Source of the DNA: a virus
Strand: one strand, 5' to 3'
DNA length: 64,000 nucleotides
IMG/VR virus record: IMGVR_UViG_3300028895_000881
Span: 1 to 64,000 of that record
Shown in pieces: positions 6,631 to 9,646 of the stretch. Position numbers and translations under genes: made by a program. Within the stretch, counting starts at the first letter, position 1, and each line of letters opens with the position of its first letter. A model generated the notes under the pieces. The model did not search any database. It was not told the origin of the DNA and was given only the letters and a program-made list of their open reading frames with translations.

Positions 6631-6706
6631 TACCGGGGATGGGATTTGAACCCATGAAATCTCCGGCTTATGAGGCCGGCGCCTTACCTGACTTGGCTAC
6701 CCCGGT
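6631..6706 (-). tRNA. tRNA-Met(CAT), elongator or Ile2
   Basis: Cloverleaf ACCGGGG/CCCCGGT, anticodon arm CCGGC-CTCATAA-GCCGG, T-loop TTCAAAT. Confidence 0.85.
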
Positions 6707-6707
6707 G

Positions 6708-6784
6708 TGGTAGCGGGAGCGAGATTTGAACTCGCGACCTTCGGGTTATGAGCCCGACGAGCTACCTGACTGCTCCATCCCGCA
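6708..6784 (-). tRNA. tRNA-fMet(CAT), initiator type
   Basis: Anticodon stem TCGGG/CCCGA (three G-C pairs), 1-72 mismatch, encoded CCA. Confidence 0.9.
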
Positions 6785-6807
6785 TCATGTGTTTGGAAGT
6801 TTCTTGG

Positions 6808-6886
6808 TGGTGGACGTAGATGGATTTGAACCATCGACCTTTCGCTTATCAGGCGAACGCTACTAACCAGGCTGAGCTATACGTCC
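6808..6886 (-). tRNA. tRNA-Ile(GAT)
   Basis: TTCGC-CTGATAA-GCGAA anticodon arm, CCA end. Confidence 0.9.
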
Positions 6887-6898
6887 AGGATGAGTTGT

Positions 6899-6975
6899 TG
6901 GTCGGCCCGGGAGGGATTGAACCTCCGACCTCCGCTTTATCAGAGCGGCGTCCTAACCAACTAGACCACGGGCCG
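6899..6975 (-). tRNA. tRNA-Ile(GAT), second divergent copy
   Basis: CCGCT-CTGATAA-AGCGG anticodon arm, CCA end. Confidence 0.9.
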
Positions 6976-7012
6976 AGCTAATAATGTCGCTAATGTCGCT
7001 TTCGATCTCCAT
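6953..7012 (-). CDS. Ile-rich leader mini-ORF MEIESDISDIISSARGLVG running into tRNA-Ile
   Basis: Strong SD AGGAAGGAG 7 nt before ATG; 4 Ile codons in the first 11; stop lies inside the tRNA D-arm. Confidence 0.6.
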   Translation of the reverse strand: MEIESDISDIISSARGLVG

Positions 7013-7037
7013 GGTCTCTCTCCTTCCTGTTATTGCT

Positions 7038-7112
7038 TGGTAGTCCCGGTCAGAATCGAACTGACGACTTTCTCCGAGTCAAGAAGACGCTCTACCACTG
7101 AGCTACGGAACT
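7038..7112 (-). tRNA. tRNA-Val(GAC)
   Basis: TCTTC-TTGACTC-GGAGA anticodon arm (unusual U37), CCA end. Confidence 0.85.
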
Positions 7113-7124
7113 ATGGGACTTGTG

Positions 7125-7199
7125 TGGTAGTCCGGGTCGGTATCGAACCGACGACCCTCTCGGTGTAAACGAGACGCTCTCCCACTGAGCTACCGGACT
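7125..7199 (-). tRNA. tRNA-Val(TAC)
   Basis: TCTCG-TTTACAC-CGAGA anticodon arm, CCA end. Confidence 0.9.
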
Positions 7200-7203
7200 A
7201 AGA

Positions 7204-7282
7204 TGGCGGGGCGTACGGGATTTGAACCCGTGACCTCCTACGTGACAGGCAGGCGTCCTAAACCTGACTAGACCAACGCCCC
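7204..7282 (-). tRNA. tRNA-Asp(GTC)
   Basis: CCTGC-CTGTCAC-GTAGG anticodon arm, G73, CCA end. Confidence 0.9.
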
Positions 7283-7398
7283 ATGCTGGCGGAGCAGACG
7301 GGACTTGAACCCGCGACCTTTCGGCTGACAACCGAGTGCGCTACCAACTGCGCCACTGCTCCGTACAGATCTCGATCATCGCTATCGTCGCTATCCAT
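7258..7398 (-). CDS. Asp-rich leader mini-ORF MDSDDSDDRDLY... running through tRNA-Asp
   Basis: Consensus SD AAAGGAGG 6 nt before ATG 7398; 6 Asp codons in the first 10; frame continues through the first tRNA-Asp and stops inside the second. Confidence 0.65.
   Translation of the reverse strand: MDSDDSDDRDLYGAVAQLVAHSVVSRKVAGSSPVCSASMGRWSSQV
7287..7362 (-). tRNA. tRNA-Asp(GTC), second copy
   Basis: CTCGG-TTGTCAG-CCGAA anticodon arm, G73, CCA end. Confidence 0.9.
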
Positions 7399-7418
7399 GG
7401 TTGTCCTCCTTTCGGTGT

Positions 7419-7492
7419 TGGTCTGCCGACCCCGGGACTCGAACCCGGCCCTCCCCGTTACCATCGGGGGCTCCCCTGGGAGCTCATCGGCA
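7419..7492 (-). tRNA. Atypical tRNA-Thr(GGT)-like RNA
   Basis: Arms GCTC/GAGC, CCCCG-ATGGTAA-CGGGG and CCGGG-TTCGAGT-CCCGG, ends ACCA; lacks U8, short D-loop, extra 3' acceptor bases. Confidence 0.55.
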
Positions 7493-7621
7493 TGTGTTGG
7501 TGTTCGTATGGTTTGGGAAAGATGGACTGTTGGACCCACGAGCCGCCCGTAGCCTGATTATCTGCGCCCGTGAGTGGGTCGCTTTTGCCTCGTCTCTACG
7601 AGGCGCGGGGATGTGAGCGAT

Positions 7622-7697
7622 TGGAGCTGGTGGGCGGAGTTGAACCGCCGACCCCGATCTTACCAAGATCGTGCTCTACCACCTGAGCTACACCAGC
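7622..7697 (-). tRNA. tRNA-Thr(GGT)
   Basis: CGATC-TTGGTAA-GATCG anticodon arm, CCA end. Confidence 0.9.
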
Positions 7698-7707: not shown

Positions 7708-8271
7708 TCAGTACTTCAATCCTTTGCGGTACCGTGCGTTTTTCTTTTTCTGACGTGTGCGTCCTCGTCCTCGGTTACGGCCTTTCGCAAAAGGGCTTAG
7801 TGCGTGGCAGTTTGGGCAGATGAGTCGGACGTTTTCTTCAGCATTGTTGTCAGAGTTCCCGTCGATGTGGTCCATTTCCAGAGGAATCGGTTTTTTGAGC
7901 CAGTGAGTCCTTCCACAACCTTCGCAGCGATGAGAGCGTGTCCGCAAAAGGTATCGCCTCCGGGTTTGGTCTGAAGTAATCTCCGTCCATGCCTTACGTC
8001 CTAAATGTTCTCCTTGTTCGATGCAGGCATCGCAGTAAGTGTTGAAATGACCTACCGCGTATGCTCGCGTGGGTTCCCCACAGTTTTTGCAAGGTGGAGG
8101 GGCTTGGCCGGTGCCAACTCGGTTTCGAGTCTTCTTGGCCGCACAGGAGTGGTCGCAGTATTTGGCTTGCCGTTTTTCGTAAGGGAGTTCTTTCTGGCAG
8201 TACGCACACAGTTTGGGGTTTTGCTTGTAAGCGGCCTTCGCTGCTAAAGATCGTTTGGTGCTGCTATGCAC
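7708..8271 (-). CDS. HNH endonuclease inserted between tRNA-Thr genes
   Basis: CEGCG...PLEMDHIDGNSDNN..ENVRLICPNCH; probable GTG start at 8271, since the longer ORF call runs through two tRNAs. Confidence 0.85.
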   Translation of the reverse strand: MHSSTKRSLAAKAAYKQNPKLCAYCQKELPYEKRQAKYCDHSCAAKKTRNRVGTGQAPPPCKNCGEPTRAYAVGHFNTYCDACIEQGEHLGRKAWTEITSDQTRRRYLLRTRSHRCEGCGRTHWLKKPIPLEMDHIDGNSDNNAEENVRLICPNCHALSPFAKGRNRGRGRTRQKKKNARYRKGLKY

Positions 8272-8306
8272 GGAGTTAAAATAGCACGTCGCTTTGACTC
8301 GTGCCG

Positions 8307-8382
8307 TGGAGCCGCCGGGGGGACTCGAACCCCCTGCCTCTTGATTACGAATCAAGTGCACTGCCAGTTGTGCTTCAGCGGC
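8307..8382 (-). tRNA. tRNA-Thr(CGT)
   Basis: CTTGA-TTCGTAA-TCAAG anticodon arm, CCA end. Confidence 0.9.
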
Positions 8383-8426
8383 ATGGTAAAGGCTATCCAG
8401 GCATGTCTTTCCTTGAGTGAAGAGTT

Positions 8427-8502
8427 TGGAGCTGACGATAGGAGTCGAACCTACAACCCCCTGATTACAAATCAGGTGCTCTGCCAATTGAGCTACGCCA
8501 GC
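8427..8502 (-). tRNA. tRNA-Thr(TGT)
   Basis: CCTGA-TTTGTAA-TCAGG anticodon arm, CCA end. Confidence 0.9.
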
Positions 8503-8613
8503 TTGAGTGGCCAGCGTGGCCAGCGTGGCCAGGTCCGCGTTGAGCTCCCCTTCCGGGGTCCCCGGCGGGTGTTCTTCACTCTGTTAGAGGTCGGTCTACA
8601 CGCCGGGAAATGC

Positions 8614-8709
8614 TCAACACGAGGTCGTATCGCCCATAATGGGGCGTACGACGGCCACGACGACCATGGCGGTCGTTGTCGTGGTGAGTTCTGTCGTGGA
8701 GCGTTTCAT
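8614..8709 (-). CDS. thrL-like leader peptide MKRSTTELTTTTTAMVVVAVVRPIMGDTTSC
   Basis: 31 aa with 9 Thr and 5 Val; lies between a sigma70-like promoter and the first tRNA-Thr. Confidence 0.7.
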   Translation of the reverse strand: MKRSTTELTTTTTAMVVVAVVRPIMGDTTSC

Positions 8710-8755
8710 GGCGTGAGTTCCGAGTCGCCGGCCTGCCAAGGGAGGCGACAGAGTG

Positions 8756-8784
8756 GGTCTACTTTCCCTCTGACGAGAAGTCAA
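8756..8784 (-). promoter_or_regulatory. Sigma70-like promoter for the minus-strand tRNA operon
   Basis: TTGACT-17 nt-TAGACC. Confidence 0.6.
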
Positions 8785-8862
8785 GAGGACCCTTCAACTT
8801 TTTTGGCGTCGTCGCGCACGTCTTGTTGACACGAGGTGATAGCGACCCTATCCTCTTCATGA

Positions 8863-9099
8863 ATGGCCGACAAGAACATCAAGACCGGCATCGTCGAACT
8901 CGACGAGCTTCTCTCCGGAGAGGGTCGGTTGGACCTGTCTGTCTTCTCGGCCGGACCGGGCAAAACCACCTTGCGCGAGCAGATGATCAAAAAAGCTCTC
9001 GAGGGAGGTGCGGTCTACGTGGATTTCGACTTCGAGATGAAGCCGAAGTTTGACGAAGAAGCTCTCGGCGTTCCGCCGGACAAGCCCATCATGCCCTAG
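8863..9099 (+). CDS. Small hypothetical protein
   Basis: 78-aa ORF followed by a hairpin with an 11-bp base (9093-9140). Confidence 0.5.
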   Translation: MADKNIKTGIVELDELLSGEGRLDLSVFSAGPGKTTLREQMIKKALEGGAVYVDFDFEMKPKFDEEALGVPPDKPIMP

Positions 9100-9153
9100 C
9101 CCGGCTCGAGCGCGTGGTGCTCTCGGGTTCGGGCTAGGGCGGAAAGCCCAGGC

Positions 9154-9438
9154 ATGTCCCAACGAGCACTTCGTCGTCATCACCGCGATCGTATGATCGC
9201 CCGAGCCCGCCACGTCACCCGACGCTGGCACAACTCCTACGAGCAAGACTGGAACGATCCTCTTACTCGTCCCGACCACACCAAAGCGGACGAGCAAGCG
9301 ACTCGGATCCACGACCACCTCAAGGTCTGCTCCTGTTCCGGATGCGGCAACCCTCGACGTGGGGGTTGGGATGAGCCGCGTACTCGACAGGAGCTTCGAG
9401 CCGAGCTCGACCTTCAAGACCAGCTCGAAGAAATCTGA
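9154..9438 (+). CDS. Small basic protein with CSCSGCGNPRR motif
   Basis: 94-aa ORF, Arg-rich N-terminus, Cys cluster. Confidence 0.6.
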   Translation: MSQRALRRHHRDRMIARARHVTRRWHNSYEQDWNDPLTRPDHTKADEQATRIHDHLKVCSCSGCGNPRRGGWDEPRTRQELRAELDLQDQLEEI

Positions 9439-9447
9439 ATCACAGGG

Positions 9448-9476
9448 TTGACTTCTTCGTCAACGGCCCCTAGAAC
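9448..9476 (+). promoter_or_regulatory. Sigma70-like promoter for the Lys tRNA operon
   Basis: TTGACT-17 nt-TAGAAC; overlaps the palindrome TTGAC-N6-GTCAA. Confidence 0.6.
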
Positions 9477-9486
9477 GAGACGCATC

Positions 9487-9519
9487 ATGTTCTGCATGAA
9501 ACGCAAGTCCAAGCTTTAG
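9487..9519 (+). CDS. Lys-rich leader mini-ORF (MFC)MKRKSKL
   Basis: Directly after the promoter; codons AAA, AAG, AAG; followed by hairpin 9519-9553 and then tRNA-Lys. Confidence 0.5.
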   Translation: MFCMKRKSKL

Positions 9520-9572
9520 CCCGTGGGGATGGTTCACTCCGTCCTTCACGGGCGTCGTAGTGATACATCCTC

Positions 9573-9646
9573 GGGCCGGTAGCTCAGTCTGCGTAGAGCG
9601 AGGGACTCTTACCCCCTAGGCGTGAGTTCGAATCTCACCCGGCTCT
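9573..9646 (+). tRNA. tRNA-Lys(CTT), imperfect anticodon stem
   Basis: GGGCCGG/CCGGCTC acceptor, AGGGA-CTCTTAC-CCCCT, GTGAG-TTCGAAT-CTCAC; no encoded CCA. Confidence 0.75.

Follow-up and report, generated by a model that had tools for sequence, protein, structure and literature searches.

Why should a phage place small open reading frames (ORFs) in front of its tRNA genes, and why should these frames be rich in codons for the very amino acid that the tRNAs carry? The question is raised by the virus record IMGVR_UViG_3300028895_000881, which stems from a very large phage known only from uncultured material, as a single contig of 83,068 bases whose first 64 kb were analyzed here and are referred to as the window. 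A sequence-only reading of this DNA had pointed to four tRNA blocks, each preceded by a tiny ORF enriched in the cognate amino acid, and all four leaders, before Thr, Asp, Ile and Lys tRNAs, are indeed present. Our analysis, which draws on the observed layout, conservation, codon matching, codon choice and spacing of these leaders, leads us to favor, with clear reservations, the view that they are translated and act as gauges, read by the ribosome, of the speed at which cognate codons are decoded, and that these gauges are wired to the phage's own tRNA genes.

Leaders that read into the Asp and Ile tRNAs

ARAGORN identifies 16 tRNAs in the window, for six amino acids only, and 15 of them are confirmed by Rfam; their 5' ends are the ARAGORN calls and may be in error by 1-2 nt. 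The order on the minus strand is Thr(tgt), Thr(cgt), an HNH ORF, Thr(ggt), an odd Thr-like element, two Asp, two Val, two Ile and two Met; on the plus strand, four Lys tRNAs diverge from the same intergenic region as the minus-strand operon.

The Asp and Ile leaders are positioned inside the array and have zero spacer to the tRNA. Before the two tRNA-Asp(gtc) genes (7287-7362 and 7204-7282, minus strand; ARAGORN and Rfam), a canonical Shine-Dalgarno (SD) sequence, AGGAGG (7410-7405, minus strand), is followed after a 6-nt spacer by an ATG at 7398, which opens the Asp leader ORF (7258..7398, minus strand). It encodes MDSDDSDDRDLY before reaching tRNA-Asp, whose first base is 7362; the putative sensing part (7398-7363) comprises 12 codons, six of them for Asp (five GAT and one GAC), and the frame then crosses the first tRNA-Asp and stops at 7260-7258, in the D-arm of the second. 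AGGAGG followed at 4-9 nt by ATG occurs at eight sites on both strands of the 83 kb, one of which is the Asp leader. The Ile leader comprises a canonical SD sequence, GGAAGGAG (7027-7020, minus strand), a 7-nt spacer, an ATG at 7012 and an ORF (6953..7012, minus strand) that encodes MEIESDISDIIS up to position 6975, where the first of the two tRNA-Ile(gat) genes begins (6899-6975 and 6808-6886, minus strand; ARAGORN and Rfam). Four of the 12 codons in its sensing part (7012-6976) are for Ile (three ATT and one ATC), and the stop codon (6955-6953) lies inside the D-arm of the first tRNA-Ile. Two leaders had been described as having near-perfect SD sites and two as running into the tRNA body; the Asp and Ile leaders bear out both descriptions. 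SD-like sites precede 11 of 64 long ORFs in a crude set, compared to 5% of all ATGs, so SD use in this phage is real but moderate.

Leaders of the Thr and Lys blocks that end at helices

The Lys and Thr leaders have stop codons of their own and stand at the heads of the two operons. On the plus strand, a promoter-like site (9448..9476), with TTGACT at 9448-9453, a 17-nt spacer and TAGAAC at 9471-9476, heads the Lys operon and is conserved in the relatives G001, G002, G003 and L031. The Lys leader ORF (9487..9519, plus strand) encodes MFCMKRKSKL and contains a second ATG at 9496; its Lys signal in the window amounts to only three codons of ten (AAA, AAG and AAG). A strong hairpin (9520..9552, plus strand) directly follows the stop codon, at 20 nt from the first tRNA-Lys, and the distance from the start of the last Lys codon to the foot of this hairpin is 9 nt. 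Folding of the 75-nt segment around it yields about -27 kcal/mol, and relatives (G002 and G001) retain the stem with altered base pairs. The block that follows (9573..10548, plus strand) contains tRNA-Lys(ctt) at 9573-9647, (ttt) at 9757-9843, (ctt) at 9940-10014 and (ttt) at 10456-10548.

On the minus strand, a promoter-like site (8756..8784) with TTGACT at 8784-8779, a 17-nt spacer and TAGACC at 8761-8756 stands at the head of the tRNA operon. The Thr leader ORF (8709-8614, minus strand; 31 codons and a stop) encodes MKRSTTELTTTTTAMVVVAVVRPIMGDTTSC, in which nine of 31 residues are Thr (ACG, ACA and ACC codons) and five are Val. Between it and the block of tRNA-Thr(tgt) (8427-8502) and tRNA-Thr(cgt) (8307-8382; block 8307..8502, minus strand, ARAGORN and Rfam) lies a structured spacer (8503..8613, minus strand). 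A long helix begins there at the stop codon (CGTGTTGAGC with GCTCAACGCG), carries the stop codon in its 5' strand and encloses a helix CCCGGCG/CGCCGGG together with a small CCCC-GGAA-GGGG hairpin. Within the ORF, the Thr run and the Val run form the two arms of one hairpin, and a second hairpin spans the segment VRPIMGDT. Three helices of the Thr leader, two inside the ORF and only CCCGGCG/CGCCGGG in the spacer, are pairable in 88% of cells, compared to 33-49% in slid controls; they can pair but hardly covary, so the structure is plausible, not proven. Despite the competing helices, the spacer contains no U-tract terminator. The earlier description of a mixed Thr/Val leader stands as far as its nine Thr codons before Thr tRNAs are concerned; the Val run is a hairpin arm that is absent in the relative G001, and the Val half of the leader is ambiguous.

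The Thr and Lys leaders share the start ATGAAACGC, and both lie downstream of TTGACT-N17-TAGA(C/A)C, which agrees with the claim of a shared start just after sigma70-like promoters. A strict sigma-70 scan scored neither TTGACT site, its sole hit being a divergent site on the plus strand (8826-8854), and we use the label 'promoter-like' because these sites are conserved in relatives; TTGAC-N17/18-TAnAnn also precedes the Thr, Lys, His, Gln and Glu leaders of related phages.

Cognate matching in the window and in related arrays

Matching was scored at tRNA heads with a spacer of at least 25 nt, where an ATG mini-ORF of 5-40 codons had to end at most 70 nt from the tRNA. Ten such heads occur in the genome of the window and four have a mini-ORF. 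The cognate amino acid is the highest-ranking of all 20 in three of these mini-ORFs (binomial p: Asp, 6e-7; Ile, 2e-4; Lys, 9e-4) and holds rank 16 in the fourth, before the tRNA-Lys at 9940. The Thr leader falls outside this filter and passes a wider one (binomial p 5e-5). The cognate share is 9/30 for Thr, 6/11 for Asp, 4/11 for Ile and between 3/6 and 3/9 for Lys, the cognate amino acid ranking first in each.

The array adjoins a gene for a 628-residue protein with a vWA domain (Pfam VWA_2; 3756-5642 of the window), which is a good marker for this clade of large phages: a search at E<=1e-30 gave 1565 homologues, and contigs of 100-660 kb carry many of them. The marker led to three IMG/VR contigs of 497, 619 and 147 kb, with 49, 55 and 22 tRNA matches, respectively, all of which have the same Thr-Asp-Val-Ile-Met and Lys order. 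An alignment of 19 homologues then retrieved 54 IMG/VR loci, three of them already known. The analyzed set consists of the window genome and 53 loci (54 sources; 819 tRNAs, 816 with an amino acid assigned), from which L002, a duplicate of L001, was excluded and of which L030, a duplicate of the window, was never part.

This set contains 561 heads with a spacer of at least 25 nt, 387 of them with an ATG mini-ORF. The cognate amino acid is the top-enriched one at p<0.01 in 25 heads, compared to 5.6±2.3 (maximum 14) in 2000 shuffles of the tRNA labels. The matches are to Asp (8/26), Lys (6/29), Thr (5/43), Ile (2/29) and His (2/15), with one each for Leu and Arg and none for the 13 other amino acids. 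A test of 14 other amino acids gave three matches at p<2e-3 in 363 heads (Tyr, Cys and Val), which we judge to be about chance level. The pairing of leader and tRNA is conserved across related arrays, and the proposal withstands comparison with shuffled labels. A stronger argument than these counts is that seven leader families, unrelated in sequence, each match their own tRNA; five of them (Asp, Ile, Lys, Thr and His), from the window or its close relatives, are enriched in the amino acid of the next tRNA.

The distinct leaders found comprise nine for Asp, four for Ile, five and six for Lys in two layouts, eight for Thr and three for His. An Asp leader is present in all three contigs (MPDDDDDDDDRL, MDDDDDVHDPN and MNIENDDCDDVDDTY), and distant loci contribute MADDDDDDR, MTWIDTEADDL, MDAPDDCDDR and MDTPDSDDR, which precede different tRNA-Asp sequences. 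A metagenome scan with the tRNA-Asp pattern returned one identical copy of the window and, as a fifth variant, a 1.3-kb sequence with the Asp leader MNTADDADDADDTY and a Thr leader with nine Thr; the same pattern in IMG/VR returned known relatives only. In total, Asp leaders stand before at least five different tRNA-Asp sequences, and their composition is kept while their sequence drifts. Ile leaders occur in two of the three contigs (MDDDISDIIRH and MEKEDSDISDIIY); in the third, an insertion parts the Ile tRNAs from the array. The core GACATTAGCGACATTAT is invariant in the three Ile leaders that carry it, and the Ile leader of L031 is without it. As a search pattern this 17-nt core was set aside: of the 11 stretches that it matched in IMG/VR, eight, all in new contigs, contain no tRNA and are chance matches.

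Lys and Thr leaders are found in all three contigs, and the eight Thr-leader variants among the relatives contain 6-10 Thr each, as counted from the peptides; a protein database contributed two Thr-leader variants. The C-terminal half of the Thr leader, which includes VVVAVVRPIMGDTTPC, is well conserved as a peptide. A His-rich leader precedes tRNA-His in two of the three contigs (MLTTAHTDDEPHHHTY and MLTHSHTELPSAGGDHHHLM), and L031 has a His leader that starts with GTG and contains APHHHLM. A second layout of Lys leader (type II; type I being that of the window) stands before tRNA-Lys(ttt), has an SD sequence and reads up to the tRNA (MKQKSMPVKDGPKQY, MKRKSEPGKAGPKES, MKRKNKPGKAGPKR and MHTKRKQAPKYGNT). 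SD-like sites 4-9 nt from the start are present in nine of nine Asp leaders, three of four Ile leaders and the type II Lys leaders. Two relatives only have Gln leaders (MALWLQQQQI and MRRQQDQT) before tRNA-Gln(ctg), with the stop codon abutting a hairpin; Glu leaders (with the segments VEREREAE and, at the end, LRGE) before tRNA-Glu(ttc), behind promoter-like sites, likewise occur in these two relatives only.

Three of the type II Lys leaders (L038 at 3015, L061 at 4347 and L080 at 4504) form a small hairpin whose loop holds the Lys codon AAA and whose stem shows compensatory changes (CCCGT/ACGGG, CCCGG/CCGGG and CCCGG/CTGGG). The Gln and Glu sites lie at about 375940-376270 and 357440-357650 in G001 and at about 417610-417810 and 358270-358470 in G002. 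In the Glu leaders, one copy of the segment CCCGCGCAGG lies within the ORF and a second immediately upstream of the tRNA. Both are complementary to CCTGCGCGGG, which lies at the end of the ORF, an arrangement that looks like an alternative-pairing switch.

No cultured relative was found; the sole GenBank match to the marker is the metagenomic Virus Rctr197k, from an enrichment culture. Contigs from four DNA runs, compared at 80% likeness, gave mostly partial matches or matches below 90%, mainly at tRNA genes and probably from other organisms; this comparison also showed the Thr leader of one relative. Among the sequencing runs listed for positions 6600-10100, none is of RNA, which bears on expression in neither direction.

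Codon choice and spacing

The long ORFs of the phage (26 were counted) use GAC for 64% of Asp, ATC for 83% of Ile, AAG for 76% of Lys and CAC for 68% of His codons. The leaders prefer the codon that is rare in these ORFs: GAT in 32 of 44 cases (0.36 expected; p 8e-7), ATT in nine of 12 (0.15 expected; p 6e-6), AAA in 12 of 16 before tRNA-Lys(UUU) (0.24 expected; p 2e-5) and CAT in nine of 13 (0.32 expected; p 7e-3). For tRNAs with G34, the preferred codons are those read by wobble. The codon test took four of the six type II Lys leaders; the spacing test omits the weak Lys candidates L048 and L064, and both are without the His leader of G003, which has a single His.

The distance from the last cognate codon to the tRNA is also constrained. 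In 19 of 22 leaders, this codon starts 7-11 nt before the tRNA, compared to a mean of 5.6 and a maximum of 13 in 5000 shuffles of codon order, and in each of the nine Asp leaders two other codons separate the last Asp codon from the tRNA. The Asp, Ile, His and type II Lys leaders, which we call type B, have no stop codon before the tRNA; their stops lie from +7 to beyond +100. In the leaders that end at a helix (type A), the last cognate codon is 9 nt before the hairpin base in five of five Lys and two of two Gln leaders. According to ribosome profiling (PMC6377232), the 3' boundary of the bacterial ribosome is about 11-12 nt from the A site. With a gap of about 9 nt, a ribosome on the last cognate codon should therefore reach only the first 2-3 bases of the tRNA, and one further step would begin to unwind the acceptor stem.

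A proposed model for ribosome-gated tRNA release

An SD sequence and ATG, cognate codons in frame, codons that are hard to read and a fixed gap are together most simply accounted for if the frames are translated and the position of the ribosome decides the fate of the structure downstream. In type B, SD and ATG are followed by a run of 8-19 codons, many of them cognate, by two neutral codons and by the first base of the tRNA; the stop codon falls within the tRNA. When decoding is fast, the ribosome would enter the acceptor and D stems, the pre-tRNA would stay unfolded and its maturation by RNase P would be blocked; when the ribosome waits on a cognate codon, it would stay short of the tRNA, which could then fold and be excised. 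Excision would turn the leader into a substrate for ribosome rescue, since it would lack a stop codon, and the net effect would be negative feedback on the supply of that tRNA or, put differently, on the decoding capacity for its codon family. Type A comprises the Thr and type I Lys leaders and, among relatives, those for Gln and Glu. Here a promoter-like site precedes a leader ORF that has a stop codon of its own; a strong helix, which either starts at this stop codon or contains it, comes next, and the tRNA block follows. The same logic might apply with the helix in place of the tRNA, and this helix could control Rho, RNase or folding.

Classical attenuation does not describe these leaders. 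A scan for intrinsic terminators gave three sites, compared to 3.9±2.0 in shuffled sequence, and none at any leader on its strand, so that the option, raised at first, that the leaders gate transcription receives no support from terminators. With zero spacer and no terminator, attenuation is rejected for Asp and Ile and is unsupported for Thr and Lys. Covariance models of Rfam (cmscan, E<=1) detect only tRNAs and weak chance hits in 5500-12000, with no T-box and nothing else at gathering score. A 'lock' formed by pairing of leader and tRNA was also rejected: relative to shuffled leaders, the change in pairing energy has a mean z of -0.24 over 20 type B leaders. In type A, |z| is below 1 in nine of ten leaders, and overall z is below -2 in three of 30 (His of L001, -4.4; Asp of L033, -2.3; Thr of L031, -2.1). 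Translational attenuation of the ermC or cat type is rejected as well, since no protein gene or ribosome binding site follows the leaders, but tRNAs. The lack of an intrinsic terminator, a T-box and general leader-tRNA pairing means that these are not classical attenuators, and for the Asp, Ile and His layouts only folding or processing fits, because there is no room for another element. A race of the ribosome against folding or processing of the pre-tRNA is the likelier mode of action.

We give rather less than even credence to a broader form of this model, in which a clade of very large phages exerts closed-loop control over single tRNA species, each tRNA block having a test frame in the hardest-to-read cognate codon and, in the compact form, the tRNA body as the switch. 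A tRNA would then be released only when its codon family is decoded slowly, for example when the host tRNA has been cleaved by one of the host's anticodon nucleases.

Several observations weigh against the proposed gauges. Translation of the leaders, the direction of the feedback, RNase P as the gated step and any coupling to transcription are steps that we infer, and the benefit to a phage of throttling one of its tRNAs is not obvious. The Thr and type I Lys leaders have no clear SD sequence, covariation in the Thr leader is nearly absent (a double change in one of 25 pairs, which does not exceed the shuffle control), and the Thr/Val and Glu enrichments coincide with hairpin arms. Many relatives are without leaders: 18 of 26 Asp, 27 of 29 Ile and 13 of 15 His heads are not significant, the His leader of G003 keeps its ORF and has lost its His run, and Virus Rctr197k, with 59% identity in the marker protein, has no leaders in an array where tRNAs of mixed identity are tightly packed, at 0-5 nt from one another; the trait belongs to a subclade whose arrays group their tRNAs by amino acid. 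In addition, the loci are related and not independent, so the shuffle statistics overstate significance, and the leader sets for the lock, codon-choice and spacing tests were picked by eye. Finally, the spacers have a lower GC content (0.54 compared to 0.60), and some of the codon skew, though not all, may be due to this.

Alternative explanations

The main rival keeps the sensing by translation and changes the output step. The leaders would still read cognate codons, and the ribosome would either shield the long untranslated tRNA precursor from RNases or from Rho-dependent termination, in the manner of tnaC or mgtL, or open a structure by its passage, so that efficient decoding would increase the tRNA output (positive feedback or licensing). 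We regard this as unlikely, though it is the strongest of the alternatives: it draws on the same conservation data as the gauge model, and the type A leaders, which end at strong helices without a U tract, fit control by Rho or RNase better than intrinsic attenuation. In type B, however, leader and tRNA adjoin, so that neither a rut site nor a processing signal would find space between them, and the ORF always invades the tRNA, which is hard to square with aiding its folding; the preference for poorly decoded codons is, moreover, what a sensor of shortage needs.

It is improbable that the leaders are untranslated RNA or DNA elements, such as hairpin arms, operators or loops that display codons, in which the open frame is incidental. 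The two-arm hairpin of the Thr and Val runs, the Glu run that also lies in a hairpin, the type II Lys hairpin with its AAA loop and compensatory changes, the invariant Ile core (in three leaders, not in L031) and the missing SD sequence of the Thr and type I Lys leaders speak for such elements. The Asp leaders, on the other hand, share no nucleotide motif or structure beyond in-frame GAY, SD and ATG; the SD and ATG are correctly spaced in nine of nine, and the cognate codons are always in the frame of the ATG. Native leaders also pair with the tRNA no better than shuffled ones, and no Rfam family matches them.

That the peptides themselves are the product, as acidic, basic or Thr-rich micro-proteins that lie near tRNAs through gene packing, appears very improbable. 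The C-terminal half of the Thr peptide is conserved and so is the His frame MLT.AHT.LP.AG.D, but seven compositions each match the neighboring tRNA, the Asp peptides vary freely except for Asp, and the type B C-termini are dictated by the tRNA sequence, with stops at variable places. Chance would require that small frames in which one amino acid is abundant arose by accident in the short spacers. This reading is hardly credible and is rejected for Asp, Ile, Lys, Thr and His: it may cover the single matches to Leu, Arg, Tyr, Cys and Val and would suit a Lys signal of three codons in the window, but no shuffle reached the observed count, independent variants keep the pairing and the spacing is fixed.

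Relation to known systems

The gauge model has its closest analogues in the leader-peptide attenuators of amino-acid operons (thrL, hisL, ilvL, pheL and trpL). Like these, the phage leaders are short ORFs with clustered codons for one amino acid in which ribosome speed would be the signal; the Thr leader starts with MKRSTT and a Thr run, and type A leaders closely follow a promoter-like site and have competing GC-rich helices downstream. Unlike them, the targets are tRNAs rather than biosynthetic or synthetase genes, no intrinsic terminator was found, and type B has no attenuator RNA at all, the ORF reading into the tRNA, which is itself the structure that would be disrupted. For the Asp and Lys leaders, we know of no counterpart among classical attenuators. 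The pheM leader of E. coli pheST and other leader ORFs before aminoacyl-tRNA synthetase genes are similar in that a leader with cognate codons controls a decoding component for the same amino acid; there, however, the target is a protein gene and the switch a terminator, whereas here the target is a tRNA. T-boxes also tie expression to the state of one specific tRNA via codon-anticodon identity, but they bind uncharged tRNA directly, without ribosomes, and control protein genes.

The reading of regulatory codons by the ribosome is the basis of leader-peptide attenuation (PMC1183508). In Salmonella, leader ORFs with proline codons precede mgtA and mgtCBR, and their translation decides between stem-loops (PMC3641672); this system, too, does not rely on a simple intrinsic terminator, but its target is a virulence/Mg2+ transport operon and its ORFs do not read into structured RNA. 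Gating of maturation by a tRNA 5' leader has its closest precedent in a set of synthetic riboswitches that control RNase P cleavage of pre-tRNA in E. coli (PMC8925977); these are engineered and driven by ligands, whereas the present element is natural and its putative effector is the ribosome. A full-text search of the literature, subscription journals excepted, found no description of leader ORFs before tRNA genes.

The purpose of phage tRNAs has been debated for decades, and the main proposals are codon compensation and the replacement of tRNAs that host defenses have cut (PMC10264068). If the gauge model holds, this phage would treat tRNA supply as a quantity regulated codon by codon, and the leaders would provide a sequence signature that predicts which tRNAs are limiting or attacked in the host. 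Leader-peptide sensing would be extended from protein operons to non-coding RNA products, and the reading of a ribosome into a tRNA would join the known controls of RNA maturation, making translation into a tRNA gene a regulatory act. The compact Asp module, of about 60 nt plus the tRNA, could also be used as a part for codon-specific sensors.

Other features of the arrays

The remaining tRNAs of the minus strand, all called by ARAGORN and confirmed by Rfam, are tRNA-Val(tac) (7125-7199) and tRNA-Val(gac) (7038-7112), which complete the Asp-Val block (7038..7362), and two tRNA-Met (6708-6784 and 6630-6706), which complete the Ile-Met block (6630..6975). The sequence ATGATG (6785-6790) lies directly against the 5' end of the first tRNA-Met or reaches into it; it has no SD sequence, occurs also in G001 and G002 and not in G003, and could be a minimal Met 'leader' or a part of the tRNA flank.

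A further block (7423..7697, minus strand) consists of tRNA-Thr(ggt) (7622-7697), a conserved 129-nt spacer (7493-7621) and an odd 70-nt tRNA-like element (7423-7492, minus strand). The spacer contains two hairpins (cgcctcg..cgaggc and gacccac..gtgggtc), has similar sequences in G002, G003 and L029 and matches no Rfam family. The odd element, which ARAGORN calls Thr(ggt) and Rfam leaves unscored, has its 3' end 12 nt upstream of the Asp SD sequence; G002 retains it with another anticodon loop (tgt). The Asp leader RNA may have its 5' end defined by this element. On the plus strand, both tRNA-Lys(TTT) (9757-9843 and 10456-10548) are long, with 87 and 93 nt and a long variable region that is unusual for Lys; their Rfam scores of 47-50 bits are below those of the other tRNAs, and the longer form is retained in G002.

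The ORF between tRNA-Thr(cgt) and tRNA-Thr(ggt) (7708..8280, minus strand; Pfam HNH) encodes an HNH endonuclease and is not part of the device. The site of this insertion measures only 11-49 nt in relatives, and one DNA contig (run X9) joins 7705 to 8315 with five other letters between, so an insertion-free form exists. Two further HNH-type ORFs (5848-6594 and 10581-11024) flank the arrays.

Among the relatives, near-identical odd tRNAs with CAAAGTAGCTCAT in their 5' part and the anticodons Ala-cgc, Met-cat, Asp-atc and Ile-gat occur in L001 (15140 and 15440), L003 (14817) and G003 (81877), each preceded by a conserved region of about 150 nt with a T-arm-like motif. A conserved Cys-rich ORF of 54-61 residues (C..H..C..C), not rich in Phe, occupies the interval between tRNA-His and tRNA-Phe in G001 (about 350880-351040) and G003 (about 85940-86125) and extends as far as tRNA-Phe. 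Finally, a frame in L044 (at 1400) that starts with GTG and encodes MGCCDCEF ends 2 nt before tRNA-Cys(gca); this single case is a possible Cys leader.

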